From positions 1 through 55,552 of the forward strand of contig CAIQJJ010000419.1 in NCBI GenBank assembly GCA_903872065.1: 55,552 nucleotides of DNA. The letters run 5' to 3'. This DNA comes from an uncultured Anaerolineales bacterium (lineage in GTDB: Bacteria; Chloroflexota; Anaerolineae; Anaerolineales; UBA4823). Below are positions 438-46,351 of this stretch, piece by piece. Below the pieces are notes generated by a model. The model did not search any database. It saw only the letters and a program-made list of their open reading frames with translations, and was not told the origin of the DNA. A program made the position numbers and the translations under genes. Position 1 is the stretch's first letter, and each line of letters starts with the position of its first letter.

Positions 438-475
438 GACCTTTAGGGTTTCAGAAACCCTAAAGGTCTTTTTTT
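438..475. terminator. Perfect 14-bp hairpin (GACCTTTAGGGTTT cag AAACCCTAAAGGTC) flanked by a T7/A7 run
   Basis: Arms 438-451 and 455-468, with T-run 469-475 overlapping the GH38 stop codon (474-476). On the minus strand (the gene strand) the hairpin is followed by UCGUUUUGUG, so it could act as a terminator or attenuator after the GH38 gene. Confidence 0.5.
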
Positions 476-3032: not shown

Positions 3033-3084
3033 CGCAACTGCTCCATGAGCGATGCAGGAACAAGTTTCCACTTGTCGCCCTGCG

Positions 3085-3663
<579 letters not shown>

Positions 3664-4884: not shown

Positions 4885-4891
4885 AGCGCGG

Positions 4892-5884: not shown

Positions 5885-5888
5885 AGCC

Positions 5889-6779: not shown

Positions 6780-7938
6780 TGATATTTTCCTTCGTTTGGT
6801 GAGATTCCCAATGTAGGCCATATTCTTCCGCCGCATCCATCACCGCTTGCAAATTTTGCAGCGGCGTCCCCGGGCAGACATTGGCGCCGTCGCCGAGCAT
6901 AAAACCGCCGCCAGGGCCCATGGCCTCAATACATTCCCAGGCTGCCTGTTTCACTGCCTGGTAACTGCCTTCCAACATCAACATCGGGTTGATATTTCCC
7001 CACAGGCGCACCCCGCTCAGGTTGGCAGCCGCGACTTTGGGCGGGACAAGATAGCCGAAAATGTCGAAATGAGTGATCTGCAAAGTATCCTTTAAAACCT
7101 GGTGCAGGTGGGTGCTGTCGCCGCACATGTGAACCGCCCTCACTTTTGAGCCAAATAAGCCAAAAAGCTGCTGGTCATAAGGCGTGCAGAACTCCTTGAA
7201 AAGCTTCGCCGACATAATCTGGGCCGAGTCCTCCGCCAGGCCATAGGCGTCGCCGCGCGGGCGAGGGTCAATCCGCCGGCACAGGTTTTCCGCCTCGATC
7301 TCGCCCTGGGTAATCTTGGCCAGGAATTGGTGACACTGCTCCGGGTACTCCAACATCCACCAATAAAAATCCTCGCCCACCAGGTCAACTGCCAGCATGT
7401 GCGGGCTGAGGCCGCCCATGCCCAGCGGACTCATCTCCACTTTTGCGGGCTGCCCGTTAAAGGTCAGGCGCGTCTCTTGGGCCCATTCTTTCATCTTCAG
7501 CCACCAGTCCACCGTCACCCCCCGCAAACCGGCATCCGGGCGCGCAACTTCAAAGCGCTCCATTTGCTCCACGTTGTGGATGACCGGGATGGCGCGGATC
7601 GGATTGTCGTCCGTCCATCCGACCTCCGCCCCCTGCCCGCTGGGAGGGATGGCGTTGTCGAAATAGGGATGGATGGAAATAGTCGGGGACTGGCAGAGAT
7701 CAGCGGCGATGTTTTCGATCTGAAATTTGGCAAACTGCAAGAGCCAGTAATACTGGGTTTCGGCGTCTTTGAAAAAGTCAATATACCGCAGACCGAACAA
7801 GGGGGCGAAAAAGCGCGGCACGACGCAGTAATTCACCGGCACGCGATCGACATACTGAAAGTTCTGCCTGGCCTCCATGCGCTTCCGGCTGAGTTCCATC
7901 TTTTCATAAGGGTAGTCAATATTTATCTCGAAACGCAT
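6757..7938 (-). CDS. URO-D superfamily protein, H-x-C-G subtype, function unknown
   Basis: 393 aa with VRAVHMCGDS and a later NVCPG. First gene of the minus-strand operon. Confidence 0.8.
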   Translation of the reverse strand: MRFEINIDYPYEKMELSRKRMEARQNFQYVDRVPVNYCVVPRFFAPLFGLRYIDFFKDAETQYYWLLQFAKFQIENIAADLCQSPTISIHPYFDNAIPPSGQGAEVGWTDDNPIRAIPVIHNVEQMERFEVARPDAGLRGVTVDWWLKMKEWAQETRLTFNGQPAKVEMSPLGMGGLSPHMLAVDLVGEDFYWWMLEYPEQCHQFLAKITQGEIEAENLCRRIDPRPRGDAYGLAEDSAQIMSAKLFKEFCTPYDQQLFGLFGSKVRAVHMCGDSTHLHQVLKDTLQITHFDIFGYLVPPKVAAANLSGVRLWGNINPMLMLEGSYQAVKQAAWECIEAMGPGGGFMLGDGANVCPGTPLQNLQAVMDAAEEYGLHWESHQTKENINAPYTSQ

Positions 7939-9035: not shown

Positions 9036-10007
9036 TCAATACAAGTGGCAGGCTACTTCATGAGTGTTATCCGTAGGGGCTTTGCGCAGTTCGGGCCGGG
9101 TTTGCCAGCAGGCATCCATCACATTCGGGCAGCGCTCAGCAAAGAGGCAGCGGGCGCGGTTGGTGGATTGCACCAGGCTCATCTCAGCCATATTTAAGGG
9201 CAGTTTCTCGGCCCAGCGTTTGTTGGGGTCGGGAGCAGGAATGGACTGGATCAGGAGGCGGGCGTAGGGGTGCAAGGGATTCTTGGTGACCTCACGCGTC
9301 AGGCCGGCCTCCACAATCCGCCCCTTGTACAGAACGATGATATTGCCGCCCAGGTATTGCGCCGTGGACAGATCATGGGTGATGTATAGGGTAGAAATGT
9401 TGAGCCGCTCGCGGAAATCCAGCAAAACATTCAAAAAAGTCACCCGCCCGGCGGCGTCTACCATTGAGACAGCTTCGTCGGCAATGATCAGGCGCGGTTG
9501 AATCAAGTGAATGCGCGCCAGCATCACCCGCTGCCGCTGCCCGCCGCTTAGTTGGTGCGGGTATTTGCCCAGGACATCGCCAGGGCGCAGATCCACCGCC
9601 CGCAGTGAAGACTCGATCATCTCGCGGCTTTCTTGCTGGCTGCGGCTGAGTTTAAATTTGCGGATCGGCGTCTGCAAGACGCGATCCACCTTATAGACCG
9701 GATTATAGACGCTGTAGGGGTTCTGAAAAACCGCCTGCACCTCGCGATGGAAGAGCGTCTGCCACTGCTTATCCTTTGAGCCAATATCCGTGTTGTTATA
9801 CAAGACATGACCAGCAGTCGGTTTTTGCAAACCCAAGATGATCCGGGCAATGGTGGTTTTGCCACTTCCACTCTCGCCAACCAGGTTAAAAATACTCGGT
9901 TCTTTCGGCATGGTGAACGAAACGTCATCCACCGCCTGCACCGTTGTCATCGTGCCAAAGATTTGTCCCAGAGAAGTGACCGTCAGGAGATCAGCCATAA
10001 GTCTCAT
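9036..10007 (-). CDS. ABC transporter ATP-binding protein (OppF/DppF-like)
   Basis: Walker A GESGSGKTT, signature LSGGQRQR, Walker B IIADEAVS, and a C-terminal Opp-type extension with Cys residues. Alternative start at 9998 (MADLL). Confidence 0.9.
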   Translation of the reverse strand: MRLMADLLTVTSLGQIFGTMTTVQAVDDVSFTMPKEPSIFNLVGESGSGKTTIARIILGLQKPTAGHVLYNNTDIGSKDKQWQTLFHREVQAVFQNPYSVYNPVYKVDRVLQTPIRKFKLSRSQQESREMIESSLRAVDLRPGDVLGKYPHQLSGGQRQRVMLARIHLIQPRLIIADEAVSMVDAAGRVTFLNVLLDFRERLNISTLYITHDLSTAQYLGGNIIVLYKGRIVEAGLTREVTKNPLHPYARLLIQSIPAPDPNKRWAEKLPLNMAEMSLVQSTNRARCLFAERCPNVMDACWQTRPELRKAPTDNTHEVACHLY

Positions 10008-10019
10008 CCTTCGCTTTCG

Positions 10020-11015
10020 TTAATAAAGATGGCAGGCAACCCTTTGACCAGAGCTGCCATTGGGGCTGGTGAAAACCGGCGCTTGCTGAGAACAACGTTC
10101 TATAGCAAACTCACAGCGCGGATGAAAACGGCAGCCAGGGGGATGGCGCCAAATGTTGGGCGATTCGCCGCCCAGCCCAATCAGGCGCTCGCCGCTCTCG
10201 CGCCCTCGGGCGTTGGGGATCGCATTGATCAGCTTTTTGGTATAAGGATGAAGGGGACTGGCAAAAACTTGGTGAATGGAACCGATCTCGACGATGCGCC
10301 CGGCGTACATCACCGCGATGCGATCGGCGATCTGCGCCATGACGCCCATATCGTGCGAAATTAAGAGGATGGCTGAACCGAACTTCTCCCGGATCGAAAC
10401 CAACTCTTGCAAGATTGAGCGCTGCGTGACCACATCCAGCGCGGTGGTGGGTTCGTCGGCGACCAGCACCGGCGGCTGCATGCTGATAGCGCCAGCGATG
10501 GCCACCCGCTGCACCATCCCGCCGCTGAGTTCGTGGGGATAGCGCTCCAAAATGGCAGCGTCCAGGCTGACCACCTGCAATGCCCAACGCGCCCTTTCGA
10601 GCGCCTCATTTTTCTTCAACCCATGTTCAATGAGCGTATCGGTTAACTGCTCACGCACGCGCTTAACCGGGTTGAGGGCGCTCATCGAGCCTTGCGGAAT
10701 ATAGGCAATTTCCTTCCATAGTAATTGGCGGTGAAGGGAGGGTTTCACCTTGAGAATATCTTGGGTCGAATGGTCATGGGTGCGGATTTGGACTGCGCCG
10801 CCAATGACTTTGCCAGGGGGTTCAATCAAGCCCAGCATGGCAACAGCCAGAGTCGTCTTGCCGCAGCCCGACTCGCCCACCAGGCCCAGGATTTCATTGT
10901 TTTGAACCTCCAAATCCACCTCGGTCACGGCCTGGGCGGCTGAACGACGCCCAACGTAAACGACCGACAGCGAACGGATGGCGAGGACGGCTTCTTGAGG
11001 AGTGTCTTGGGTCAT
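10020..11015 (-). CDS. ABC transporter ATP-binding protein (OppD/DppD-like)
   Basis: GESGCGKTT, LSGGMVQR, LVADEPTTALD, and a C-terminal PGCRFHPRC Opp-type motif. Confidence 0.9.
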   Translation of the reverse strand: MTQDTPQEAVLAIRSLSVVYVGRRSAAQAVTEVDLEVQNNEILGLVGESGCGKTTLAVAMLGLIEPPGKVIGGAVQIRTHDHSTQDILKVKPSLHRQLLWKEIAYIPQGSMSALNPVKRVREQLTDTLIEHGLKKNEALERARWALQVVSLDAAILERYPHELSGGMVQRVAIAGAISMQPPVLVADEPTTALDVVTQRSILQELVSIREKFGSAILLISHDMGVMAQIADRIAVMYAGRIVEIGSIHQVFASPLHPYTKKLINAIPNARGRESGERLIGLGGESPNIWRHPPGCRFHPRCEFAIERCSQQAPVFTSPNGSSGQRVACHLY

Positions 11016-11017
11016 GG

Positions 11018-11863
11018 CTATTCTCCGTGGGCGGTGGTTTGCAGGCGCGGGTTGAACTGCTCATCCAACCCCATGTTGATCAAATTTAGGCACAAGAAGG
11101 TCAGGGTCAAATAGCCAGCCGGCAGAAGCACCTGCCCGGCAAAGCCGCCGCCTAAGGCCCCAGCTCCCATCGCTTTCGCCATGAGATAGCCCAGGGTGGC
11201 CAGGTTGCCCGACCCAATGCCCAGGATTTGCAGACCAGCCTCGGCCAACATGGCGCCGACCGCCGCGCCGGAGACGCTGAGAAAGATGTAGGGCAAGAGG
11301 CCGGGGATCAACTCTTGCACAATGATCTCCAGGCTGTTTTCATTGTTGAGGCGGGCCAGGTCTACAAATGGGCGCTGGCTCAAACTGAAGACCTGAGCGC
11401 GCACGGTGCGCGCCACAAACGGCCAGCTAAACAGACCTAGCAGCAGGCCGATGGTCAGCAGATCCCATTTGTCCACCGAAATCGAAAGCACCATCAGCAG
11501 CGGCAGGGTTGGCACCACCAGGAACATATCCGTCAACACGCGCAGAATCGTATCAGTGTTACCGCCTACAAAACCGGCGACAAAACCGACCAGCACCCCT
11601 AAGAGCGTACCGACGATGCCAGCCACAAAACCGACGCCGAGCGACAGGCGCATGCCATATAAAAAGACGGCCATCGCGTCGCGGCCCAGTTGATCGGAGC
11701 CGATAGGAATCTCGTCGGAGACCGCCTGGTAGGGCGTGTAAGCGGAGATCTGCAAGGGATCTTTTAATTTCGTCCTGCTTTTGGCGATGGTTGGGCCAGC
11801 CAGGGCAAAGATGAGCAGGCCAAGAAAAAGCAAACCACCTATGAGCAATTTGGGATTACGCAT
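11018..11863 (-). CDS. ABC transporter permease (OppC/DppC-like)
   Basis: Multi-TM protein with the BPD-transporter fold. Start set at MRNPKLL (ATG 11863), giving an ATGCGTAA 8-nt overlap with the upstream permease stop. Confidence 0.85.
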   Translation of the reverse strand: MRNPKLLIGGLLFLGLLIFALAGPTIAKSRTKLKDPLQISAYTPYQAVSDEIPIGSDQLGRDAMAVFLYGMRLSLGVGFVAGIVGTLLGVLVGFVAGFVGGNTDTILRVLTDMFLVVPTLPLLMVLSISVDKWDLLTIGLLLGLFSWPFVARTVRAQVFSLSQRPFVDLARLNNENSLEIIVQELIPGLLPYIFLSVSGAAVGAMLAEAGLQILGIGSGNLATLGYLMAKAMGAGALGGGFAGQVLLPAGYLTLTFLCLNLINMGLDEQFNPRLQTTAHGE

Positions 11864-12923
11864 CGCTCCTCCGAATCCGCGGATCAAATAAGGGCATCGC
11901 CAGGTCAACAATTAAGGAGCCGGTCAGCACAGTGAAAGCCGAAAAGACCAACAGCCCCATCATAGTATTGAAATCCCGCAGCGCGGCGGCATTGGCAAAC
12001 AACGTACCCAGGCCGGGGATGCGGAAAATAATTTCAATGATGTACGCGCCATTTAAACTCATGCCCAGCACAATGGCTAAACCAGCCACCTGCGGCAGCA
12101 GCGCATTGCGAAAAGCATACTCTTTGAGAATGGTCAGGGGAGACAGGCCTTTGGCGCGGGCATAAGCCAGGTAATCTTCGCCCAAAACCGAAACCATCAG
12201 AGAGCGCATGCCCAGGATCCAACCGCTGCTCCAGACCAGAACCATCGTACCGACTGGCAGGATGGCGTGAATCAACACACTCTTAATAAACGGCCACTTC
12301 CAGGAGGGCATCATTTGGGCATCGTAAGGCCGCCCGGAGGGCAGCCAACCCAGCTTATAAGAAAGCCCCAGGAGCAGAAAAACGGCCAGGACATAAATGG
12401 GAGTGATGTTGATCAAGGTGGTGAGGACGATCGCCCAAGAGGCGAAGCGACTGCGACGCATCCAGCCTAACAAAGCTCCAATGGCGGTGCCTAAAATCCA
12501 GGCGAGAATGACGGAGGTGGTAAACAGACCGAGCGTCCAGGGCAGATAGCGGCCAATGACCTCATTGACCGGTGTGGGGTACTTAACGAATGAATGGCCA
12601 AAATCGAACGGCCCGAAGATCATGTTCTTCAAAAACTTCAAATATTGAATATGCAGCGGCTCGTTCAAGCCCATTTTTTCGCGGTAATACTCAGCGGCTT
12701 TATCGGCGCCAACGATCAACCCGGCATTGGACTGCAACTGAGTGACCGACATAGCCATTGGGTTGCCGGGCATGAAGCGGAAAAGGATAAAGGCCAGAGA
12801 CAGCGAGGCCCATAAGGTGAAGAGGTAGACGCCAAAGCGATTCCCAAGGTACCTGGCCAGAGGCCGGTATCTTTGGAGGCGCGAGCGGAAAGATTTTTCC
12901 TCAGGTTTTTCTTCGTTCTTCAT
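11856..12923 (-). CDS. ABC transporter permease (OppB/DppB-like)
   Basis: Typical OppB-like N-terminus and an EDYLAYARAKGLS EAA-loop motif. Confidence 0.85.
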   Translation of the reverse strand: MKNEEKPEEKSFRSRLQRYRPLARYLGNRFGVYLFTLWASLSLAFILFRFMPGNPMAMSVTQLQSNAGLIVGADKAAEYYREKMGLNEPLHIQYLKFLKNMIFGPFDFGHSFVKYPTPVNEVIGRYLPWTLGLFTTSVILAWILGTAIGALLGWMRRSRFASWAIVLTTLINITPIYVLAVFLLLGLSYKLGWLPSGRPYDAQMMPSWKWPFIKSVLIHAILPVGTMVLVWSSGWILGMRSLMVSVLGEDYLAYARAKGLSPLTILKEYAFRNALLPQVAGLAIVLGMSLNGAYIIEIIFRIPGLGTLFANAAALRDFNTMMGLLVFSAFTVLTGSLIVDLAMPLFDPRIRRSDA

Positions 12924-12951
12924 TCTTCATCCTTCATCTTCTTACATCCTT

Positions 12952-13126
12952 CAAAACCCTACAGGTCTTCTTCGACCTGTAGGGTTTTGTGGACAGCTTC
13001 TAAAACGTTCCCCTTAGATGGATACCCCGCGCCTTTCCCCAGGGAAGGAAAGGCACGGGTGAACATACAGTCAAAAAGGACTCTTGCAAGACTTTAGAAG
13101 TCGGACTTCTCAGAAGTCCGGCTTCT
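12952..13126. terminator. Two strong hairpins between the SBP and permease genes (intra-operon attenuators?)
   Basis: 12952-12989: perfect 16-bp stem CAAAACCCTACAGGTC/GACCTGTAGGGTTTTG with loop TTCTTC. The inner 11 bp are followed by TTTTG on both strands. 13096-13126: 15-bp stem AGAAGTCGGACTTCT/AGAAGTCCGGCTTCT with one mismatch. Confidence 0.4.
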
Positions 13127-13146
13127 GATGTCTATCTACGAGGATC

Positions 13147-15066
13147 TTATGGATTGTAAACCGGCAGGCTGTCTACCATACCGGAGGCTTCCCACAGCAT
13201 CTTCTGGTACGAGGTGCCCCAGATGATGTACTCGCCATCGGGCAGATTTTCCCAATACCTGCCGTAGCTGACCAGTTCTGTGTAAGCGCCAAACAGTTCG
13301 ACAAAGGGCTTGACCTCGACGTAGTGTTTGTAGATGTCCTTCATCAGAGGATCCACAGCCGGGTCATCGGGGTTCATGGCGCTCAGCTTGCTGTACAGAT
13401 CATCGAAGGTCTCATCCGTATAACGCCCAGTGGTGCCCCACATGGCGACCTCGCCAATCGGCTTCTGGACGCTGCTGGTGAAGAGACCATAGTTGAAGAT
13501 CGGCCAGTCCGCGGGGGCGCAGGCCCAAACAATGGACATGCCATAATTGCCCTTCATGACGGCGTCGAAGAAAACATTGGCGTCGCCCGGCATCTTGACA
13601 TCCACTTCAATGCCCACCTGGCTGGCGTCGTAAGCAAACAAGCGCGGCCAGGCGCCCCAGCCGCCTGAATCGAGGGAGTAGACTTCAATCTTGATCGGGT
13701 TGCCGTCTTTGTCCAGGCGTTTTCCATTGGCATCCAGTTTATAGCCGGCCGCATCCAAAATTTGGGCTGCCTTGGCGGGGTCGTACACAGAAACATCGTT
13801 GGCCTTAGCGACCTCGGGATCCCACCAGCGGGAGTTCGGTTCGCCAATATAAGGCCACGGTACCAGCATGATATAAGAAGCCGGCGTATCCAGCTTGGCG
13901 GCGGCTTCGCGGTTGAGCAGCAGGCTCATGGCGTGGCGGAATTCCACATCCTCAAACGGTTTGACGGTCACATTGAAGGAGACCTTGCGCGGGCAGATAT
14001 CAAGGCCGACGAACTTGGACCAGTCCTTATTTTCCTTCACCAGGCGGTCGTTCAAAGCGGCGGTTAAGCCACCCAGGTCATAATTGCCGGCGATGAAATC
14101 TTCAATCGCGGCGTCCGTTGTACCGTAGCGGGTGAAGACAATATACTTGGGCTTGGGCAGCAAATCTGCATTCCAATAATCCGCGCGCCGCTCCCAGATG
14201 CAAGTGAAGGTATCTTCGTTGCAGGCCCTGAGTGTATACGGCCCGGTGCCGACCGGCGGATTGTTGGGATAGTTGACGTAATCCTGTCCATCCCAAAGGC
14301 GCTTGGGGATGGGGTGGTAGCCCATGGTGGCAGTCGAATTGATAAAACTCATGTGGAAGGTGGGATTGGGAGAAGGAACGGTGAGTTCGGCAATGTTATT
14401 GGCTTCGTCAGCCGCCTTAAAGAACTTGAACAAGATAACATTATCGCCGGCGATTTCAACGGTGACATTTTTGGATAAGCCAACGTGCAGACCTTTATCC
14501 ATATTCGCCTGCGCCGACTGAAAAGTGAACAGCCAGTCGTCTATGGTGACAGGAGTGCCGTCGCTAAAGGTGGCTTTGAGGTTCACATAGAGCTTGATTT
14601 CGGTGTAATCAGCGTTGTATTCCCATTTTTCACCCAGGACGGGGATGATTTTGCCATTCAGCCCCATGAACAGGTTTTCTTCTGATAACTGCAGCCCACC
14701 GTTCCATTCATCGCATTTGGTGGCGGGGGACATATAGTTGAAGCAGTTGAATTTGGGATTATTGGAGTTTGAGCCGATGATGTAGGTTTCGTTGCGGGGG
14801 AGGTCGCCGAAGACATAAGTGACTTCCTCCGGCACAGGGGTAGCGGTAACCTCAACCTGCACTACCTCTTTGACTTCCACTTCCACCGTTTCCTTAACCT
14901 GCACTGTCTCTTTGACCTGCACGGTTTCCTTGACGGTTTGAACAACAGGTTCCGATGTTTCTCGCACCACGACTGTTTGAATAACAGTTTGCGGCGCACA
15001 AGCGGAAAGCAGCATGACCAGGACGGCCACAACCGACACAATTTGCAAGAACTTGCGAACTTTCAT
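13147..15066 (-). CDS. ABC transporter substrate-binding lipoprotein, family 5 (OppA/DppA-like; peptide or oligosaccharide)
   Basis: Signal peptide with lipobox LLSAC, a repetitive linker, then a family-5 SBP body (GPYTLRA..., WNADLLPKPKYIVF). GGAGGAAAAG SD directly upstream. Confidence 0.9.
   Translation of the reverse strand: MKVRKFLQIVSVVAVLVMLLSACAPQTVIQTVVVRETSEPVVQTVKETVQVKETVQVKETVEVEVKEVVQVEVTATPVPEEVTYVFGDLPRNETYIIGSNSNNPKFNCFNYMSPATKCDEWNGGLQLSEENLFMGLNGKIIPVLGEKWEYNADYTEIKLYVNLKATFSDGTPVTIDDWLFTFQSAQANMDKGLHVGLSKNVTVEIAGDNVILFKFFKAADEANNIAELTVPSPNPTFHMSFINSTATMGYHPIPKRLWDGQDYVNYPNNPPVGTGPYTLRACNEDTFTCIWERRADYWNADLLPKPKYIVFTRYGTTDAAIEDFIAGNYDLGGLTAALNDRLVKENKDWSKFVGLDICPRKVSFNVTVKPFEDVEFRHAMSLLLNREAAAKLDTPASYIMLVPWPYIGEPNSRWWDPEVAKANDVSVYDPAKAAQILDAAGYKLDANGKRLDKDGNPIKIEVYSLDSGGWGAWPRLFAYDASQVGIEVDVKMPGDANVFFDAVMKGNYGMSIVWACAPADWPIFNYGLFTSSVQKPIGEVAMWGTTGRYTDETFDDLYSKLSAMNPDDPAVDPLMKDIYKHYVEVKPFVELFGAYTELVSYGRYWENLPDGEYIIWGTSYQKMLWEASGMVDSLPVYNP
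14848..14934 (-). repeat. In-frame 18-nt tandem repeat encoding the (VKETVQ)n linker of the SBP
   Basis: The protein reads VKETVQVKETVQVKETVEVEVKEVVQVEV directly after the lipobox. The DNA shows repeated GTYTCYTTGACCTGCAC-like units. Confidence 0.7.
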
Positions 15067-15255: not shown

Positions 15256-15305
15256 AGTATACCCGTTGAAATTATAAAAGTCAAGATGTTTATACGTATA
15301 TACAT
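15256..15305 (-). promoter_or_regulatory. Sigma70-like promoter (-35 TTGACT, 17 nt, -10 TATACT) abutted by a near-perfect 20-bp palindrome carrying two GTnTAnAC (HutC-type) motifs
   Basis: Minus strand: TTGACT at 15284-15279 and TATACT at 15261-15256. The palindrome ATGTTTATACGTATATACAT at 15286-15305 has one mismatch and contains GTTTATAC and GTATATAC. It lies upstream of the SBP gene and inside the large-protein/SBP spacer. Confidence 0.45.
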
Positions 15306-15328: not shown

Positions 15329-18235
15329 TCAACCCTCACGTGTTGATTTCTCAAGAGTCTGCCACTGCACCCGCACAATCGCCCCATCGGCGTCGTTGGC
15401 GTAGCGAACAAGGATCGTCTGCCCTTCGGAGAGATAACTCGCTGCCAGCGCTTTCCCCAGGATAGTACACGCGCTGACGCGCTCAACCTGCCGGCCGGCG
15501 CTCCACAGGCGCGCCGCGCCCTCGCTGCCGGTGGGAGATTGGCTGAGAAAAACGACCGCGTCACTGCTCTCGACGTAGGCCCTCGTCCGCCCGGCGACCG
15601 CCAGCAGACGGGGCGTCGCGCCGCCCATCTGCGCTTCCAACCAAAAGGCGCATTCATGGGGCGAGACGGTGGGATTTTCCAGAACGGCCAGGTTGGAGGT
15701 GAGCAAATCAATGTAGCAGCCTTGCGCGTGGTAGGCTTGATCCAAGGCGCTGATGGCAGTGTAAGGGCCGCGCTGGATGCGAAAGTAGGGCTGTTCGCGG
15801 TAAATCGCGCCGCTCTTTTCATAGCCATATTTGGCCAGGGCGCTCAGCCAGCCCGCCCCCTGGGAAGAGACCGCCATGAAACGCGGGCTGACGCCAGCGA
15901 AGATCACCGTTCCCTGGCCGACTTTTGCCTCCCATATCAGTGGGGTTGCATCGTCCTTCAAATAATAGAGCGGCTGCGCCGCGGCCGGCGGTTCGTAGAA
16001 AATCGCCTGGCAGTATCCGCCGGACTGATCAGACAGCAGCACAATACTCCCTCCAGGCTGATGGCTCCGGTCTTGCGGTTTGCCGGCCGGAATGATCAAA
16101 GTTTCGTAACCGGGGAAGGCGATGCGGCTGTCCGCGTGCAGTTCCAGATCGTGATCCGCCGCCTGGATTAGCCTTTGGTTCTGCACAGGCAGCCCCAGGC
16201 GCTGCAGCAGGTCTTCGCCCGGCGAGGCAAAGCCGGCCAACCGCCACCAGCTATCTTGCAGCGCATTGTAGGCGTCTGCGCCGCCGAAGAAGAGCAGCGT
16301 CCCGCCGGCCTTCACCCAATCCGCCAGGGCCTGGTTCATTTGCGCCGAGGTCGGCTTGAGAAAATCGTAGCACACCAACAGCGCTCGATAGTCGTCCAAA
16401 TAGCCAGCTTCCGCGCTGCGATCCAGGGATAGCACCTGCAGCGGAATACCCTTAGCGATCAGAGGCAGGGTCAAGCCCCAAAAATCGTTGTAATCGCTGG
16501 GCGAGGGATCGTCACGCTGCCAACCCATCGAATCGGCGACAAAGGTAGCGATCCCCTGGCTGCCGAAGTCGCACTCCGCCGCGGGGTAACGCCACAGCTC
16601 ACACAATGCGCCCACCACCGTGTTGACCAGGGTCTCATATTCCTTGGGGACGCAGCCATAGATGCGATTGGGCCACACCAAAACCTCATAATTGTCCACA
16701 GCAGGAAACATTAAAGAGGCCACAATCGTGCGCACATAATTGCGGTGGTAATCTTCCATGGGCAGATTGGGCCGATCTTCCAACGGATCGTGCAGGAACC
16801 ACAGGCGCTTCCCCAGGCCGCGTGTCAACTGGTAGAAGGATGAGTATTCCAGGAAACCGACCTCAAAGGTGCGTTCGGCGACTTCTCCTGCCAGGGGAAC
16901 CGGGACGCGCGCCGTGCCGGTCCACACCTCGGCAATCACCTCCTGCACTTCGGGCATCATCACCATTTGATGGTGGCGGCAGGTAATATTGATCAGGTAG
17001 TAATTGATCGGGCTGTGCGCCGAGAGCAGGCGGGTGACAGATGGGCTGCGCCGCGCCACATCTTGCAAGATGGTCTGAATCTGGCGGGTAAAGAGGTGGC
17101 CCTTAAGCTGTTCCGCCTGGTACCTGGCGTCAATGCTGCTGTGCGGCGCTTGCCACGGCGTCCCGTAATACGCCAGCCATTCCTGCTTGAAAACGTCAGA
17201 GTAGCCGGAGTAAGTCCAAAATTCAGGCTCATCATAACCGAAGCCGGTCGCGCCGGCCTCGAGCGCTGCGGCATAGTGGCGGGCGGCGTACCCGTCGCGC
17301 GCCGGGTTGGGGACGCGATAATAGTCGCTGCAGCGCACCTCGAACGGCCCGCCGAAACGCCGCGCCACGTCCGCCTTCCATTCCTCCGTCACGAATGGCA
17401 CACTCAGATCGAGAGTCTTCTCGCCCTGCTGGGCGACATGCACCCCTAAAGTCCTCCCGTAACGGTCGCGCTGCACATCCGGCAGATCAGGCGTAATGGC
17501 TAAATCGCCGGCGAAGCGGCTGTGCAGCATGGTTTGGGCCTGGTAGCCTTTGGCCGCCCAGTTGGGAAACATGATCGGATCGTCGGTCGTAGCCCAAAAA
17601 TACAGGCGGACGGCGTCGGTCGGCAGCGCCATTGCTGGATCGTAACGCCAGGCATAGAAAAACGAAGTATGAGGCTGCGTGGGAATGGGCGCGATTTCGA
17701 TGCGATCTTCAGCCTGGCAGCCCATTAAGCCAGCAGCCCAATCGCTAATTCCATCTTGATTTCCATCATGAAATGGCAAAAGTAGATTAAAATAGCGTAC
17801 AGCAATACGCTCTTGTTTTGCCTGAAAGATGAAATGGATAGGGTCGCCTGGCGGATGGTATGTGGGGGTGGTGAAACTGACCGCATGGTGGATGCCTGTC
17901 TGTTCCAACGTGTAAACCAATGGTTTTCCTTCTGCATCAGTGATTCGAAAGTCAGGATCGCCTTCGGCTTGAAAGTTTAACCGGCAGGGCAGATTTGGCG
18001 GAACGACTACCCGCCACGTCCACCCGCCGCCCGGCTCTGCCAGACGCCAATGCTTTTCAACTGAACAACTTGAGGCCGCCGCGAGCGCCTCGGCTTCGGA
18101 TCGGGTTCCCGGGATGAGAAGGATGGTATGAACAAGAGTGGTTTTCATAGAAATAACCGTACAGTGCTTAAAACTTGCCTGTTCCTGACATATACTTTTG
18201 GTTGTAACGCACGGATTTTCATCAACGCTAAACAT
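15329..18235 (-). CDS. Large uncharacterised protein (968 aa), paralogue of 51141-53540; possible glycoside-hydrolase-like barrel plus GATase1-like C-terminal domain
   Basis: Long ORF with clear similarity to the 799-aa ORF at 51141-53540 (blocks DEPEFW..YG..WQ.P.SS.DARY, EVWTGT.R.P, RLW.L.DP.ED.PN, SAQ...AL..WV..G..L...G). The start is uncertain: 18235 or MKTTLVH at 18148, neither with a good SD. No obvious signal peptide. Confidence 0.75.
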   Translation of the reverse strand: MFSVDENPCVTTKSICQEQASFKHCTVISMKTTLVHTILLIPGTRSEAEALAAASSCSVEKHWRLAEPGGGWTWRVVVPPNLPCRLNFQAEGDPDFRITDAEGKPLVYTLEQTGIHHAVSFTTPTYHPPGDPIHFIFQAKQERIAVRYFNLLLPFHDGNQDGISDWAAGLMGCQAEDRIEIAPIPTQPHTSFFYAWRYDPAMALPTDAVRLYFWATTDDPIMFPNWAAKGYQAQTMLHSRFAGDLAITPDLPDVQRDRYGRTLGVHVAQQGEKTLDLSVPFVTEEWKADVARRFGGPFEVRCSDYYRVPNPARDGYAARHYAAALEAGATGFGYDEPEFWTYSGYSDVFKQEWLAYYGTPWQAPHSSIDARYQAEQLKGHLFTRQIQTILQDVARRSPSVTRLLSAHSPINYYLINITCRHHQMVMMPEVQEVIAEVWTGTARVPVPLAGEVAERTFEVGFLEYSSFYQLTRGLGKRLWFLHDPLEDRPNLPMEDYHRNYVRTIVASLMFPAVDNYEVLVWPNRIYGCVPKEYETLVNTVVGALCELWRYPAAECDFGSQGIATFVADSMGWQRDDPSPSDYNDFWGLTLPLIAKGIPLQVLSLDRSAEAGYLDDYRALLVCYDFLKPTSAQMNQALADWVKAGGTLLFFGGADAYNALQDSWWRLAGFASPGEDLLQRLGLPVQNQRLIQAADHDLELHADSRIAFPGYETLIIPAGKPQDRSHQPGGSIVLLSDQSGGYCQAIFYEPPAAAQPLYYLKDDATPLIWEAKVGQGTVIFAGVSPRFMAVSSQGAGWLSALAKYGYEKSGAIYREQPYFRIQRGPYTAISALDQAYHAQGCYIDLLTSNLAVLENPTVSPHECAFWLEAQMGGATPRLLAVAGRTRAYVESSDAVVFLSQSPTGSEGAARLWSAGRQVERVSACTILGKALAASYLSEGQTILVRYANDADGAIVRVQWQTLEKSTREG

Positions 18236-18257: not shown

Positions 18258-18330
18258 CATATTGTCAATATGTTTAGATGTATTGACATATTGACGTAGT
18301 ATTGAAATCATGTATACTTTTAAGTACACA
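18258..18330. promoter_or_regulatory. Divergent control region: palindromes plus a sigma70-like promoter for the GntR gene
   Basis: Perfect palindrome CATATTG-T-CAATATG at 18258-18272. Plus-strand promoter with -35 TTGACG at 18291-18296, a 16-nt spacer, and -10 TATACT at 18313-18318. Imperfect palindrome TGTATACTTTTAAGTACACA at 18311-18330 overlaps the -10. TATTGA is repeated three times at 18281-18306. Confidence 0.4.
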
Positions 18331-18454
18331 GTTTTGTGTGTTTAAAAGGCAGGATTCTTGACCATACCTGGCGCGGCAAAAGATTGCGCTTTTCTCATGC
18401 AGCAGAAAACCCAATTTGCGCTTGCTCCAGGTATATTACAAAAGGAGCCGCGAA

Positions 18455-19204
18455 ATGCCCATGGCTGAATTGACCCAAAATGGAGTTCCGTTTTATCATC
18501 AACTGAAGGAAATTTTCAGCGAGAAAATCGAAAATGGTGAATGGCGACCGGGCGAGACGATCCCCCCTGAGAACCAATTGTGTGAGATGTTCAATGTCAG
18601 CCGGGGACCGGTGCGCCAGGCGCTAGACATCCTGGTGCGGGATGGTCTGCTCTCGCGTAAGCAAGGCAAAGGGACGATCGTCCTGCCGCCGAAGATCGAA
18701 CGCGGGCTGGGGACGTTTTACAGCTTTACCACCTTGATCGAGCAAAAAGGGATGAACGCTTCGACCCAGATGTTGTCTTTTGAGACCGTCACTGCGCAGG
18801 GCAGCGTTGCCCGTTACCTGGAGATCCCCCCCGAAGAGCCGTTATTTAAGGTGCGGCGGCTGCGCTTGGCCAACGGCGAGCCGTTAATTTTAGAGGTGAT
18901 CTATATCCCCGCTTCGATTTGCGATTCACTGACCGCGGAAAAAATGTTGACCACGCCGCTTTATACCATTCTCTCCACCTGCTATGGAATTGTTCTGACC
19001 CGCGCCAAGCAGTTTTTTGAGCCGGTAGTCACGGACGAATACGAGTCGCAAAAGCTGGGCATCTCAAACGGCGCGCCGGCGCTGCTCATCCAAAACATTA
19101 CATATCGCTCAGATAACCGGCCGGTTGTATTGAGCAAGGCGATCATGCGCGGCGACCGCGTGCGCTATTATGTCGAACTAAGCGCCCAAATCAATGTCCC
19201 TTAA
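18455..19204 (+). CDS. GntR-family transcriptional regulator, HutC subfamily (wHTH plus UTRA domain)
   Basis: PFYHQLKEIFSEKIENGEWRPGETIPPENQLCEMFNVSRGPVRQALDILVRDGLLSRKQGKGT is a canonical GntR wHTH. The length and C-terminus fit a UTRA effector domain. Start set at MPMAEL (ATG 18455) with AAAGGAG 7 nt upstream. Confidence 0.9.
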   Translation: MPMAELTQNGVPFYHQLKEIFSEKIENGEWRPGETIPPENQLCEMFNVSRGPVRQALDILVRDGLLSRKQGKGTIVLPPKIERGLGTFYSFTTLIEQKGMNASTQMLSFETVTAQGSVARYLEIPPEEPLFKVRRLRLANGEPLILEVIYIPASICDSLTAEKMLTTPLYTILSTCYGIVLTRAKQFFEPVVTDEYESQKLGISNGAPALLIQNITYRSDNRPVVLSKAIMRGDRVRYYVELSAQINVP

Positions 19205-19254
19205 AAGACCGTCTTTACTTTGCAGTTAAATTTTCCCCACGATTGGAGTATTGC

Positions 19255-20232
19255 ATGGGAACAAACGAAATTGCTTTATATCAGACGATGGTTCTCATTC
19301 GCCGTTTTGAAGAGACCGTCAACGAGCTGTACATGCAGGGTCGCATTCCCTCCACCCTGCACCTGTACATCGGGCAGGAAGCGGTAGCAGCCGGCGTGTG
19401 CAGCGCCCTCAACCTGGATGATTACGTCTTGACCACCCACCGCCCGCATGGACACGCCCTGGCAAAGGGGGTCGAGGCGAAAGCGATCATGGCTGAACTT
19501 TTCGGCAAAGCCACCGGAACCTGCAAGGGCAAAGGCGGTTCGATGCACGTCGGCGATATCCGCGTGGGCGTTTTCCCGGCCATCGCGATCGTCGGCGGGA
19601 ATGTTCCGATTGCCGCCGGGGCGGCCCTCTCGGCAAAGATGATGAAGAACGGACGCGTGGCGGTCAGCTTCTTTGGCGACGGCGCAGCAAACGAGGGCGA
19701 TTGGCACGAGGCGATGAACGTCGCCGCGCTGTGGAAGCTGCCCATGCTCTTTGTTTGCGAAAATAACCTGTACGCCGCCTCGACGCCCTACAAAGCCGCT
19801 TTTAATATTGAGACGATCGCCAGGCGGGCTGATGCGTATGGCATGCCAGGCGTGGTGGTGGACGGCAACGATGTCCTCGCCGTCCATCGCGTTGCCCAAC
19901 AGGCGGTCGAGCGCGCCAGGGCTGGAGAGGGGCCGACGTTGATCGAGTGCCGCACCTACCGCCAATGCGGTCATTCGCGCTCTGATCCGCGCACCTACCG
20001 CACGCAGATCGAAGAAGCCGAGTGGAAGACCAAAGACCCGATTGTCAATTTCCGCAAATACCTGCTCGAAGAGCTGCATGTGGATGAAAACAGCCTGCGC
20101 CAGGTTGACGAAAAAGTTGAGGCGGACCTCCGTGAGGCCATCGCCTACGCCGACGCCAGCCCCCTGCCTGCTGCGGACGATCTGTATTCCGATGTCTACA
20201 CCCCCACATCCGAAGGAGGACGCCATGCCTAA
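19255..20232 (+). CDS. Thiamine-diphosphate-dependent dehydrogenase E1 component, alpha subunit (pyruvate/acetoin/branched-chain 2-oxoacid type)
   Basis: YIGQEAVAAGV, the GGNVPIAAGAALS...FFGDGAANEGDWHEAMN TPP-binding motif, and YRQCGHSRSD. GGAG lies 7 nt upstream of ATG 19255. Confidence 0.9.
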   Translation: MGTNEIALYQTMVLIRRFEETVNELYMQGRIPSTLHLYIGQEAVAAGVCSALNLDDYVLTTHRPHGHALAKGVEAKAIMAELFGKATGTCKGKGGSMHVGDIRVGVFPAIAIVGGNVPIAAGAALSAKMMKNGRVAVSFFGDGAANEGDWHEAMNVAALWKLPMLFVCENNLYAASTPYKAAFNIETIARRADAYGMPGVVVDGNDVLAVHRVAQQAVERARAGEGPTLIECRTYRQCGHSRSDPRTYRTQIEEAEWKTKDPIVNFRKYLLEELHVDENSLRQVDEKVEADLREAIAYADASPLPAADDLYSDVYTPTSEGGRHA

Positions 20233-21238
20233 GATGAGTATTGCCGAAGCGATCCGCCAGGGGATCCGCGAAGAAATGCGCCGCGATGCGCGTGTGTTCT
20301 GCCTGGGTGAAGATATCGGCATCCAGGGAGGTTTTGGCGGCGCTTTCACCGTCACCCTGGGTTTGTCTGAAGAATTTGGTCATGAACGCATTTTGGATAC
20401 CCCGATTTCGGAAGCGGCGATTGCTGGCCTGGCGATTGGGTCGGCGGTGTGCGGCATGCGCCCGATCGCGGATGTCCAATATGGCGATTTCTTGTTTGAG
20501 ATGATGGATCAGCTTGCCAACCAGGCCGCCAAACTGCGCTACATGTCCGGCGGCACCCTCTCGGTGCCAATGGTGATGCGCGCTCCGGTGGGAGCGACCG
20601 GGCGCGGCTCGCAGCACGCCCAAAGCCTGGAAGCATTCTTTACCCATGTACCTGGTTTGAAGGTGGTCTGCCCGGCCACCGCCTATGACGCCAAGGGGCT
20701 GCTCAAGGCCGCTGTGCGCGATGATGACCCGGTGTTGATTTTTGAGCATAAGCTGCTGTATGGCTCTAAAGGGGCGCGCAGCGAAAAAGGCGCTCTCAGC
20801 CCAATCGGCGAGGTGCCGGACGAAGATTATATTGTCCCGATCGGCGTCGGCGCTGTCCGGCGCACGGGCAAGGATGTCACAATCGTGGCCAACCTGCTCA
20901 TGCTCTATCGTTCCCTGGCGGCGGCGGAAACCCTGGCGCAAAAGGGCATCGAAGCGGAGGTGATTGACCCGCGCACGCTGGTGCCGCTCGACAAGAACTT
21001 GATTTTGGACTCGGTGCGCAAGACCGGGCGCTTGTTGATCGTGGAAGAGGACAACCTGACCAACGGCTGGGTGGCGGAAGTAGCAGCCTTGATGGCGGAT
21101 GAAGGGTTTGCCTGGCTCGACGCGCCGATCAAGCGCGTGGCCGCGCCGGATGTGCCGCCGCCTTTTGCCCCGCCGCTCGAAAGAGCGTATGTCCCCGATG
21201 AGCAGCGTATCGTGGACGCGGTCCTGTCTATGCTGTGA
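20225..21238 (+). CDS. E1 component beta subunit
   Basis: MPKMSIAEAIRQGIREEMRRDARVFCLGEDIG...DTPISEAAIAGLAIGSA is typical of E1-beta. Its ATG overlaps the alpha stop (ATGCCTAA, 8 nt). Confidence 0.9.
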   Translation: MPKMSIAEAIRQGIREEMRRDARVFCLGEDIGIQGGFGGAFTVTLGLSEEFGHERILDTPISEAAIAGLAIGSAVCGMRPIADVQYGDFLFEMMDQLANQAAKLRYMSGGTLSVPMVMRAPVGATGRGSQHAQSLEAFFTHVPGLKVVCPATAYDAKGLLKAAVRDDDPVLIFEHKLLYGSKGARSEKGALSPIGEVPDEDYIVPIGVGAVRRTGKDVTIVANLLMLYRSLAAAETLAQKGIEAEVIDPRTLVPLDKNLILDSVRKTGRLLIVEEDNLTNGWVAEVAALMADEGFAWLDAPIKRVAAPDVPPPFAPPLERAYVPDEQRIVDAVLSML

Positions 21239-21250
21239 GCAGGAGGCGCA

Positions 21251-22693
21251 ATGGCAACCCCAATTATTGTTCCTCCTCTCAGCCAGACAATGGACAGCCT
21301 GGTCTTTGTAACCTGGTTGAAGCAGGTCGGCGAGCGGGTGGAGAAGGGCGAACCTCTCTACCAGGTAGAAACGGATAAAGCTGTCCTGGATGTGGAAGCG
21401 CCGGCCGCCGGCATTGTGCAAGAAGCCTCGGCTGCGCCAGGCAGCGAAGTCCTGGTCAAGTCCACCATCGGCCTGATCGTCTCGCCGGCTGAACAAACCT
21501 CCGTCCAACCTGGCGCGGCGGCCTCGCCGCGCCAGAGTCGCATCTTTGCCAGCCCGCGCGCCCGCAACCTGGCCAAAGCTGAAAATGTCCCCCTGGGCGC
21601 TGTCCAGCCAAGCGGGCCGCAGGTGAAACTGCCGCACGTAACTGAAACACAGGCGATGATCGTCGAACGAGACGTGCGCGCATACGTGGAGCTTCAAAAG
21701 CAGCCGCCTGCGCCGCCGGAGAAGGCGCGGCCAGAGGCCGCCGAGAGGCCAGCCTCCAGGCCAGCCGAAGTGCGCGCCACCCCCCTGGCGCGGCGCGTGG
21801 CGCAAGCGACAGGCGTAGACCTGGAGACTGTGGCGCAGGCGCGCCAGGGGACGGTCATCCGGCGCGCCGATGTGGAAGGCGCCCTGCGCGGCGAGGCGGA
21901 GCCGCGCGCGCCGAAGGAGGCCGCAGCCGCCGCGCCGCCGCCGGTCGTGACGCCAACGCGCCTGGCCGGCAAAGGGCGGCCCGTGGCGCTCAGCGCCCTG
22001 CGCAAGACAATCGCCCGCCGCATGCAGGCCAGCCATCAGATCACTGCGCCGGTGACGTTGATGCGCGAAGTAGATGCGACCGAACTGGTCAACTTGCGCG
22101 CCAACATCTTGAACGAACTGCCGGCGGACGCTGGAGCGCCGCGCCCAACCTATACCGATTTCCTCATGGTCATCCTGGCGCACACCCTGCCGCGCCATCC
22201 CCATCTCAACGCCCTTTACCAGGACGAGGAGTTTGTGGTCTATGACGAAGTGCACCTGGCCCTGGCCATTGAAACCGAGCGCGGCCTGGTAGCGCCGGTC
22301 ATCCACGACCTGCTCCATAAGCCCCTGCTCGATCTGGCCGCGGCCCGCGTCCAACTGGCCGAGCGCGCCCACGCCGGAACGCTGGCGGCGGAAGAACTCA
22401 GCGGCGGAACCTTCACCCTGACCAATCTGGGCGCGCTGGGGATTGACGGCTTTACCCCACTGCTCAACCCGCCGCAGGTAGCCATCCTGGGCATGGGCCG
22501 CATCCGCCCTATCCCGGCGGTGGTCGCCGACCAGGTCAGCATTCGCCAGGTCATGACTTTATCCTTGACCTTCGATCACCGCCTGGTGGATGGCGCGCCG
22601 GCCGCCAAGTTTTTGCTGGACGTGGCCCAACTAGTGGAAAAGCCCTATTTGATCTGGTTAGCCAACTTTAAATCAGTCCCAGGAGAACGGTGA
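21251..22693 (+). CDS. Dihydrolipoamide acyltransferase E2 component
   Basis: Lipoyl domain with ETDKAVLDVEAP, Ala/Pro-rich linkers, two peripheral-subunit-binding-like segments, and a catalytic domain with LSLTFDHRLVDGAPAAKFL. Confidence 0.9.
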   Translation: MATPIIVPPLSQTMDSLVFVTWLKQVGERVEKGEPLYQVETDKAVLDVEAPAAGIVQEASAAPGSEVLVKSTIGLIVSPAEQTSVQPGAAASPRQSRIFASPRARNLAKAENVPLGAVQPSGPQVKLPHVTETQAMIVERDVRAYVELQKQPPAPPEKARPEAAERPASRPAEVRATPLARRVAQATGVDLETVAQARQGTVIRRADVEGALRGEAEPRAPKEAAAAAPPPVVTPTRLAGKGRPVALSALRKTIARRMQASHQITAPVTLMREVDATELVNLRANILNELPADAGAPRPTYTDFLMVILAHTLPRHPHLNALYQDEEFVVYDEVHLALAIETERGLVAPVIHDLLHKPLLDLAAARVQLAERAHAGTLAAEELSGGTFTLTNLGALGIDGFTPLLNPPQVAILGMGRIRPIPAVVADQVSIRQVMTLSLTFDHRLVDGAPAAKFLLDVAQLVEKPYLIWLANFKSVPGER

Positions 22694-28210: not shown

Positions 28211-28370
28211 ATCCTTCGGCTATCGTTCGGCCATCCTTCGACAGGCTCAGGATGCCTGATGGGTAATTGCCTTCTGCATCCTTCGGCCATCCTTCGACAA
28301 GCTCAGGATGCCTGGTGGGTATGTCTTCTTCATCCTTCGGCCATCCTTCGACAGGCTCAGGATGCCTGAG
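28211..28370. repeat. Three tandem copies of the REP-like element (units starting 28211, 28278, 28332)
   Basis: Repeated ATCCTTCGGCCATCCTTCGACARGCTCAGGATGCCTG with periods of 67 and 54 nt. It fills the spacer between two minus-strand genes and supplies the last codons and stop of the upstream gene. Confidence 0.85.
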
Positions 28371-32860: not shown

Positions 32861-32920
32861 TGGGAGGTGATATAATTTAACCCTCTATCCGCACTTGCGT
32901 TGGTGACAAAGGAGCTTCGC

Positions 32921-33727: not shown

Positions 33728-33761
33728 GCCCCCGGTGGGCGTGTTTTGCTAGGAGTCAAGC

Positions 33762-34568: not shown

Positions 34569-34571
34569 TTG

Positions 34572-42270: not shown

Positions 42271-42466
42271 TTGTTCTTTTAGCGCAAAGATAAAGCGGCG
42301 ACCGTCGCCGCCCATCATTTTTAGCAAACCAGTTTAGGGTGGAGCGAGGGAACTGGTTCGTACTTTGGAAAGGAGGTCCCTGTATAGAGATATTTGATAG
42401 GCTGTTCATTTCCATCCCATTTTGCTTAAAAAAAACCCTTTAAACTTTCTGGAGGAAAGATTTCTT

Positions 42467-44305: not shown

Positions 44306-44353
44306 GGCCTCTTGAGCTTCTCGAAAGATTGATCATCATTTTTCTGTAAAGCA

Positions 44354-45471: not shown

Positions 45472-45481
45472 GAGGAACACC

Positions 45482-46348: not shown

Positions 46349-46351
46349 GCC

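Follow-up and report, generated by a model that had tools for sequence, protein, structure and literature searches.

The described enzymes that come closest in fold to the proteins considered here belong to glycoside hydrolase (GH) families 42, 164 and 35. In retaining glycosidases of clan GH-A the catalytic acids follow strands 4 and 7 of a (beta/alpha)8 barrel, and GH5 and its GH-A relatives carry an accessory signature as well -- a His on strand 5, a Tyr on strand 6, a Trp on strand 8 and an Asn just before the acid/base; GH164 and GH35 use two Glu, one at strand 4 and one at strand 7. GH42 enzymes are usually cytoplasmic partners of oligosaccharide importers, and the GH112 phosphorylase is coupled to an ABC importer. 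We have analysed 55,552 nucleotides from an uncultured Anaerolineales bacterium (contig CAIQJJ010000419.1 of assembly GCA_903872065.1; this whole stretch is called the window below), in which two open reading frames, ORF A and ORF B (Table 1), each lie beside an ABC importer. They are diverged members, about 30% identical, of one large unnamed bacterial protein family. We consider it moderately probable that both are GH42-like glycoside hydrolases, with E336 of ORF A and E132 of ORF B as the putative acid/base and D483 and D284 as the putative nucleophile, which would cleave imported oligosaccharides in the cytoplasm; it is the fold, the conserved acids, the domain fusions and the gene neighbourhoods of the family that suggest such a hydrolase function.

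The two proteins align by BLASTP with E=4e-55, at 25% identity across 729 columns and 31% across the core. An earlier, sequence-only reading of this DNA had placed both frames correctly and called them paralogues, and its count of 27 identities in a 54-residue block, which begins at residue 331 in ORF A and residue 127 in ORF B, was reproduced exactly; the further blocks it listed, (E/Q)VWTGT.R.P and RLW.L.DP.ED.PN, are indeed present in both. A hidden Markov model (HMM) of the family picks up ORF A and ORF B in the window and nothing else, in keeping with its statement that the family occurs twice. Also borne out were the N-terminal extension with a DGNQDGISDW motif, found in ORF A only, and the lack of a signal-peptide-like N-terminus in either protein. 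One quoted pattern was slightly off at its end, where (D/E)(S/W)WW had been given; ORF A has DSWW and ORF B REWW. The true start of ORF A is probably M30, at nucleotide 18148, for a product of 939 amino acids (aa), because the three nearest orthologues begin at that position (MKTT..HTILL) and the AlphaFold model is disordered ahead of residue 31.

Both sequences were compared with Pfam (2025), NCBIfam (2026) and the PDB (2026). No Pfam family scored above threshold for either, NCBIfam gave no match, and phmmer searches of the PDB with ORF A and ORF B were empty, so that the earlier statement that neither could be assigned to a known family stands. Below threshold, DUF4350 (PF14258) scored 24.5 bits with ORF A and 14.4 bits with ORF B against a gathering cut-off of 30.4; it matched 20 of 49 family members at E<=0.01 (best E=7.7e-8) over some 120 residues of the middle domain, and one member is labelled "DUF4350 domain-containing protein" by NCBI. 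Profile searches of the PDB matched only the archaeal GH35 chains 8oug, 6jow and 5gsl, and these only in the middle domain (8oug at E=6.6e-5 and 6jow at E=4.9e-4, the best value coming from the most diverse profile); we take these chains to be exo-beta-glucosaminidases of the GlmA type, the PDB label being beta-galactosidase. PF02449 (Glyco_hydro_42) gave no match at E<=1 in ORF A, ORF B or ten diverse members, and with the GH164, GH35, GH151, GH112 and GH167 structures phmmer detected no sequence similarity, the profile matches to the archaeal GH35 middle domain being the only ones. For a direct comparison with GH42, a genuine member of that family in locus L021 was picked by its DYNPDQW motif and 120 homologues were gathered; family profiles of 49 and 298 sequences were then aligned with this 120-sequence profile by hhalign, full-length and barrel-only, locally and globally. 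The middle domain alone aligned, with the GH42 trimerisation domain. The SAQ..WV..WW segment, which the sequence-only reading had likened to the GATase1-like domain of GH42 enzymes, lies here, at residues 630-664 of ORF A; the likeness holds, since the segment matches 8oug and 6jow and aligns with the trimerisation domain, while the C-terminal location given for it does not.

AlphaFold2 models built on the family alignments (for ORF A, predicted local distance difference test score pLDDT 92.0 and predicted TM-score pTM 0.92; for ORF B, 94.2 and 0.94) were compared with the PDB by Foldseek. Both contain a (beta/alpha)8 barrel of the kind that the sequence-only reading had proposed to test for, regular in its eight-unit beta/alpha order by DSSP, then an alpha/beta middle domain and a beta-sandwich, which is the three-domain fold of GH42 (barrel, trimerisation domain, beta-sandwich), and in both the top matches are to GH42, GH164 and GH35. 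ORF A matched GH42 5e9a (6.4e-17) and 3tts (4e-15), GH35 7vky (5.6e-14) and GH164 6t5o (8.8e-14); ORF B matched GH42 3tts (2.9e-14) and the same families as ORF A, together with GH151 6tvk (1.1e-11), GH167 9whd (5.3e-11) and the GH112 phosphorylases 2zus and 3wfz (E=5e-8 to 6e-7). These matches span the full length at 8-13% identity, with about 800-840 aligned columns for those named for ORF A and for the leading GH42 entries. The GH42 entries among them are 5e9a, 3tts, 4oif, 6lvw and 4uzs, the first four being the top hits, at E=6e-17 to 1e-13. No enzyme class other than glycosidases appears among the 50 Foldseek matches listed for either protein. The ORF B barrel also weakly matches that of GH191, whose members are homologues of the GH114 alpha-galactosaminidases, and the C-terminal beta-sandwich of ORF A shows a weak profile match (E=0.015) to the C-terminal domain of a GH5 endoglycoceramidase II. 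In ORF B a helical stretch of about 100 aa (residues 358-461) is inserted between the barrel and the middle domain.

Conservation was computed over 298 family sequences and is given here in ORF A numbering. The most conserved residues gather at the C-terminal ends of the barrel strands: at strand 4, position 335 is Glu in 93% and Asp in 4% (ORF A itself has D335), followed by E336 (97.6%) and P337 (98%); at strand 5, H407 (97%) and S408 (96%); at strand 6, W438 (97%); at strand 7, D483 (98.3%), P484 (98%) and D487 (98.7%); and at strand 8, W521 (97%), P522 (98%) and R524 (98%). The conserved acidic pair that had been looked for is thus present, one acid at the end of strand 4 and one at the end of strand 7. 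By DSSP, E336 of ORF A is the first residue past strand 4 and D483 the second past strand 7; in ORF B, strand 4 is followed by E131-E132 and strand 7 by D284. E336 is a candidate general acid/base, and D483 a candidate nucleophile or second catalytic carboxylate. Judged by strand order these would be the GH-A catalytic positions, with an Asp for the nucleophile Glu and an acidic residue for the Asn that normally precedes the acid/base. At the positions of the other GH-A signature residues, H407 on strand 5 and W521 on strand 8 are conserved, strand 6 carries W438-T439, not Tyr, and position 335 is Glu or Asp, not Asn. Near-invariant residues are also found in the middle domain (K627, P628, W640, G644, W663 and W664), which suggests that this domain does more than hold an oligomer together.

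As we picture the enzyme, its active site would lie on the C-terminal face of the barrel, where the Glu that follows strand 4 (E336 or, in ORF B, E132; EEPEFW) would serve as general acid/base and the Asp that follows strand 7 (D483 or, in ORF B, D284; WxLxDPxED) as nucleophile, in a retaining GH-A geometry, with H407, W438, W521 and R524 lining a sugar subsite. More speculatively, and by analogy with GH42 and GH151 oligomers, the middle domain may, through its KP and WW residues, complete the active site of a neighbouring subunit. As both copies in the window are without a signal peptide and stand beside importers with a family-5 substrate-binding protein (SBP5), their substrates would be oligosaccharides that are taken up and then cleaved in the cytoplasm; ORF B would act together with two GFO/IDH/MocA oxidoreductases, and ORF A would be controlled by the divergent GntR/UTRA regulator.

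Table 1. Coordinates of ORF A, ORF B, their predicted domains and candidate catalytic codons, and the neighbouring genes referred to in the text.
Feature	Position in window (nt)	Strand	Remarks
ORF A, 968 aa as listed	15329-18235	minus	N-extended subtype of the family
N-terminal all-beta (beta-sandwich) domain, ORF A residues 32-157	17765-18142	minus	DSSP of AlphaFold2 model; present in the A-type subfamily, absent from ORF B
DGNQDGISDW, ORF A residues 157-166, a DxNxDGxxD loop	17738-17767	minus	calcium-binding-loop-like; kept across the N-extended (A-type) subfamily
(beta/alpha)8 barrel, ORF A residues ~186-552	16580-17680	minus	strand 4 = 331-335, then E336; strand 7 = 477-481, then D483
Codons of D335-E336 (consensus E-E, EEPEFW motif)	17228-17233	minus	conservation and strand order
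Codon of D483 (WFLxDPxED motif)	16787-16789	minus	conservation and strand order
Alpha/beta middle domain, ORF A residues 553-812	15800-16579	minus	GATase1-like, DUF4350-like, GH42-trimerisation-like
C-terminal beta-sandwich, ORF A residues 815-960	15356-15793	minus	model secondary structure
ABC importer 1: SBP5 (13147-15066), two permeases, two oligo_HPY ATPases	9036-15066	minus	downstream of ORF A; Pfam
GntR/HutC-type regulator with UTRA domain	18416-19204	plus	divergent from ORF A; arrangement kept in the locus of a 69% orthologue
ABC importer 2: SBP5 (42422-44305), two permeases, two oligo_HPY ATPases	42422-48366	plus	upstream of ORF B; Pfam
Two GFO/IDH/MocA oxidoreductase genes (GFO1, GFO2)	48526-49578, 50130-51128	plus	between importer 2 and ORF B; kept in orthologous loci
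ORF B, 799 aa	51141-53540	plus	same three-domain core, without the N-terminal extension

The family is large. A HMMER scan of 1.84 billion cluster representatives (50% identity) returned at least 1,839 proteins with E<=1e-3, of which 716 reach E<=1e-30, and a word-indexed search with ORF B found 3,766 clusters at 90% identity. On contigs representing one genome per species, relatives are encoded at no fewer than 594 loci. Members occur in Armatimonadota, Verrucomicrobiota, Paenibacillus and Cohnella, Acidobacteriota, Planctomycetota and Hydrogenedentota, among other groups; the Armatimonadota (Chthonomonadales, 47%) come nearest to ORF A in the phylum survey. All five members from cultured organisms that were checked, such as Pjdr2_1518 of Paenibacillus sp. 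JDR-2, are labelled "hypothetical protein" in RefSeq, and in UniRef the name is at times "Beta-galactosidase trimerisation domain-containing protein". The domains to which members are fused all have to do with carbohydrates, among them GH29 with an F5/8 type C domain (P0044), the carbohydrate-binding module (CBM) CBM9 with SLH domains (P0133, P0137 and P0150) and the putative hydrolase GxGYxYP (P0058), and a CHU_C or type IX secretion system (T9SS) sorting domain is also found. By a crude heuristic, signal-peptide-like N-termini occur in about half of the family representatives.

Among the closest orthologues much of the gene order around ORF A is kept. The 69% orthologue (P0002) retains the GntR/UTRA regulator in divergent orientation along with E1 alpha/beta, with SBP5 and permease genes 7.5 kb downstream, past GDSL esterases and a GH63-like gene. 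The 64% orthologue (P0003) has GH38, GH2, three GH29, GH5 and an esterase as neighbours, and a 43% relative (P0010) follows E2, E1 alpha and E1 beta genes and lies near GH38, a class-II aldolase and a PfkB kinase; this last set is present in the window too (GH38 at 474-3071, PfkB, aldolase, and E1/E2 at 19243-22693). Two orthologues of ORF B, P0325 (75%) and P0337 (64%), lie in loci with an SBP5 importer, two or three GFO/IDH/MocA genes, the ORF B gene and then a GxGYxYP gene, a glycyl-radical enzyme also being present in one of them; the substrate-binding proteins of these loci are orthologous to that of the window (phmmer E=8e-268 and 2e-240). Adjacency and such conserved synteny are what suggest operon membership for ORF A and ORF B. 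Across the family GH38 is found in 9 of 82 loci, and one member (P0408) has GH2, GH10 and GH53 as neighbours. The link with an Opp-type importer was tried as a family trait and given up: phmmer searches with the SBP and the permeases of the window found SBP5 in 0-1 of 82 loci and Opp-type permeases in 0 of 82.

Several of our observations weigh against reading ORF A and ORF B as hydrolases of imported oligosaccharides. The importer link is lineage-specific and confined to close orthologues; with that link gone at the level of the family and about half of its members looking secreted, the cytoplasmic role has to be limited to the two copies here and their near relatives, for which the sequence-only reading of an enzyme acting on an imported oligomer is reasonable, as it is not for the family as a whole. 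Its description of both genes as sitting in operons with Opp-type importers was right as to adjacency, SBP5 importers being beside both, and is not borne out as to the operons: the 262 bp separating ORF A from the SBP gene contain a promoter-like site, and a terminator-like hairpin at 48470-48495 parts importer 2 from GFO1-GFO2-ORF B. Many family members are found in contexts unrelated to carbohydrates; the Paenibacillus member stands alone between tyrS and an MCP gene, and a Verrucomicrobiales locus is similar. Literature on DUF4350, GxGYxYP, new families of GH42 fold, Pjdr2_1518, WP_015843135 and ACT00190 yielded no characterised member. The barrel gave no alignment with GH42 by hhalign, with a barrel-only probability below 1%, and is therefore a distinct sequence family within a known structural class; the catalytic assignment accordingly draws on strand order, topology and conservation, only the middle domain having aligned with GH42. 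In clan GH-A a nucleophilic Asp at strand 7 would be unusual, and E338, E463, E486 and D487, which are also conserved, could be the true catalytic partners instead.

Three other functions have been weighed on the same evidence. On a GH42-like scaffold, phosphate or a sugar acceptor could replace water, giving a glycoside phosphorylase or transglycosylase comparable to GH112 or to the beta-1,2-glucosyltransferase of GH35 from Ignavibacterium. GH112 (2zus, 3wfz) and that GH35 enzyme, IaSGT (7vky), are indeed among the fold matches, both copies in the window have the typical phosphorylase setting in being cytoplasmic and beside importers, the invariant basic residues R443, R524, K627 and R822 could bind phosphate, and GH112 uses a single Asp as acid catalyst. 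The GH112 matches, however, are some 6-7 orders of magnitude weaker than those to GH42 and GH164, roughly half of the members appear to be secreted or to bear SLH, CBM9 or T9SS modules while phosphorylases are cytoplasmic, and conserved carboxylates at strands 4 and 7 suit a retaining hydrolase, which together leave a phosphorylase or transglycosylase improbable. We give a similarly small chance to a non-glycosidase that has borrowed the GH42 shape, be it a lyase, an esterase or deacetylase, an enzyme of a GFO-coupled 3-keto-glycoside step, or a non-catalytic binding protein. What speaks for it is that the barrel forms a sequence family of its own, for which profiles show no likeness to any GH, that ORF B orthologues always stand beside two or three GFO/IDH/MocA genes distantly related to the glycoside 3-dehydrogenases of the BT_2158 and BT_2159 families, that xylose-isomerase-like barrels and glycyl-radical enzymes recur nearby, and that esterases flank ORF A orthologues; against this, the architecture of all three domains is like that of an exo-glycosidase, with no other class among the matches listed, the carboxylates are at the canonical strand-4 and strand-7 positions, and the fusions are to GH29 and CBMs.

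The remaining possibility, a hexosamine-specific glycosidase, overlaps with the hydrolase reading and is a sub-hypothesis about its specificity. Here the E/D335 beside E336 would bind a 2-amino group or polarise a 2-acetamido group, in substrate-assisted catalysis like that of the D-E pair of GH20 and GH123, and the imported compounds would be chito-oligosaccharide-like or oligomers of glucosamine or galactosamine. Position 335 is almost always acidic right before E336, where clan GH-A has Asn; the best PDB sequence matches are the archaeal GH35 chains that we presume to be exo-beta-glucosaminidases; the regulator divergent from ORF A is of the GntR/HutC-UTRA class that includes NagR and DasR; Opp/Dpp-type substrate-binding proteins carry chitobiose in Vibrio and Thermococcales; and there is the weak likeness of the ORF B barrel to GH191. 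All of this is circumstantial. The PDB similarity is confined to the non-catalytic middle domain, HutC-type regulators govern many other pathways, the window showed no gene for NagA, NagB, NagK or a deacetylase, and the orthologue neighbourhoods (GH38, GH63-like, GH29, lyxose/mannose isomerase) point instead to mannoside and fucoside degradation, so that hexosamine specificity too seems unlikely. Beyond the two genes themselves, that the whole family is a GH family not yet in CAZy, represented in at least 594 species of Bacillota and other phyla, GH42-shaped with E-E after strand 4 and Asp after strand 7, seems to us nearly an even call; its specificity might then go beyond that of GH42, GH164 and GH35, towards glycosides of amino sugars, linkages of the mannoside or fucoside kind, or a step shared with GFO/IDH/MocA and GxGYxYP proteins.

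A number of further features were noted around ORF A. GH38 alpha-mannosidase, D-lyxose/mannose-isomerase-like cupin, PfkB and class-II aldolase genes (474-3630 and 4892-6836, minus strand) recur with ORF A-type genes in other loci (P0003, L001), as do GH63-like (MGH1-like) genes, which hints that the surroundings of ORF A are a mannoside or mannosyl-solute catabolic island. On the plus strand at 19243-22693 is a thiamine-diphosphate E1 alpha/E1 beta/E2 set resembling 2-oxoacid or acetoin dehydrogenases. Three further loci, at 43-69% identity, have such a set beside their ORF A-type gene (L090 487-2524, L001/L002 6617-9845 and L086 13834-16095 are the positions listed), and a fused E1 lies near a more distant member of the family. 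The E1 alpha scores 380 bits, just below the cut-off of 393.85 for the pyruvate dehydrogenase E1-alpha equivalog, and E1 beta probably starts near 20230, since the ORF as listed (20042-21238) would overlap E1 alpha by about 190 nt. No NCBIfam equivalog reached its cut-off for the neighbouring genes, hence no clue to substrate came from that source. GTATAC palindromes at 15257-15262 and 18312-18317, in the two gaps flanking ORF A, overlap promoter-like -10 hexamers; as a shared GntR/UTRA operator the motif is too weak, since the window has six sites where 1.9 would be expected and a count of six was reached in 2 of 100 shuffles.

On the ORF B side, a 343-aa ORF at 53559-54590 (plus), 18 nt past ORF B, has no Pfam match and no meaningful match in the PDB; no homologue of it occurs in L083 and L084, the orthologous loci, where a GxGYxYP gene stands instead. 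The 551-bp gap between the two GFO genes (49585-50109) is filled with three or four direct repeats of about 87 nt with a 75-nt core, 76-89% identical, each holding a GC-rich palindrome, CAGGCGCGCTGAGCCTG, and there are 15-nt TGTCGAAGCG(T/C)GGCT sub-repeats as well; it looks like an intergenic element of the repetitive extragenic palindromic (REP) type. Two glycyl-radical enzymes (PFL-like with a Gly_radical domain) are encoded at 23790-26033 and 36510-38657 (plus), both below the NCBIfam equivalog cut-offs, and a homologous one lies two genes downstream of an ORF B orthologue (L084, 15082-17232). At 32900-35594 (plus) two xylose-isomerase-like TIM-barrel genes are followed by a third GFO/IDH/MocA oxidoreductase gene, a combination typical of inositol, levoglucosan or 3-keto-glycoside pathways. 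Four URO-D (uroporphyrinogen-decarboxylase-like, PF01208) paralogues, at 3685-5001, 6757-7938 and 26491-27582 on the minus strand and 31588-32691 on the plus strand, are scattered among the sugar-catabolism genes, which is unusually many for 55 kb of DNA that offers no context of haem biosynthesis. The 625-aa product of an ORF at 28357-30234 (minus) matches Pfam GH42, over residues 20-130 only, and GH14 in its N-terminal part, with Bacillus beta-amylases as its best PDB sequence matches (E=1.7e-7); it is a divergent GH14/GH42-like barrel unrelated to the ORF A/B family, and it was dropped as a GH42 anchor for the profile comparison because it is nearer to the GH14 beta-amylases. An Rfam scan of the whole window gave no match.

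Should the hydrolase assignment be right, a large family now labelled hypothetical would gain a function, and the structural group of GH42, GH164 and GH35 would gain a family with an unusual Glu/Asp pair, which would aid the annotation of glycan-degradation loci in little-studied phyla such as Armatimonadota, Verrucomicrobiota, Hydrogenedentota and Planctomycetota; the recurrent partners -- GxGYxYP proteins, GFO/IDH/MocA oxidoreductases and Opp-type sugar importers -- are themselves uncharacterised or loosely assigned. New GH families of such architecture appear regularly, so the advance would be useful but incremental: this is a plausible new glycoside hydrolase family, not a new kind of system. 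Its fold class and general role are already known, while the sequence family, the variant catalytic motifs and the specificity are not described in Pfam, NCBIfam, the PDB, RefSeq names or the literature covered.

Among described systems, DUF4350 (PF14258) and the ThuA/GATase1-like domains are matched only weakly and only in the middle domain, and have nothing to say about the barrel. The GH112 galacto-N-biose/lacto-N-biose phosphorylase (2ZUS) is a cytoplasmic enzyme with a GH42-like multi-domain fold, but it is a much weaker structural match, works by an inverting phosphorolytic mechanism and shows no sequence similarity. In GH151 the nucleophile is an Asp at strand 4 and the acid/base a Glu at strand 6, and the active site is completed by a neighbouring subunit (PMC10154630). 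The GH151 alpha-L-fucosidase ALfuk2 (6TVK) resembles ORF B at E=1.1e-11, through its barrel, Rossmann-like middle domain and beta-sandwich, and some members of our family are fused to or flanked by GH29 fucosidases; there is no sequence similarity, and the catalytic arrangement of GH151 does not fit a family that has its Glu at strand 4 and its Asp at strand 7, because strand 6 here ends in W-T-G-T. The GH164 beta-mannosidase Bs164 (6T5O) and the GH35 enzymes (Ignavibacterium 7VKY; archaeal GlmA-type 6JOW, 8OUG and 5GSL) share the three-domain layout, at Foldseek E of about 1e-13, and differ in having 8-10% identity and no sequence similarity in the barrel, as well as in the Asp that the present family has after strand 7. 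The best whole-chain matches are the GH42 beta-galactosidases of Bacillus circulans (3TTS), Rahnella (5E9A) and Geobacillus (Gan42B, 4OIF), at E=6e-17 to 1e-12 and target-normalised TM-scores of 0.5-0.62. Identity is just 10-13%, PF02449 is unmatched and the barrels do not align. Where a Paenibacillus GH42 reference has NE(F/Y)G and LME(S/Q), with a Glu (in the L021 protein, WHISNEFGG and FMLMESTPS), the family has EEPEFW and WxLxDP, with an Asp, strand 4 being followed by E-E-P-E and strand 7 by x-D-P. Further differences are the additional N-terminal beta-sandwich of ORF A and the helical insertion of ORF B. Shared with GH42 are the order of barrel, GATase1-like trimerisation domain and beta-sandwich, and a middle domain that aligns by profile.

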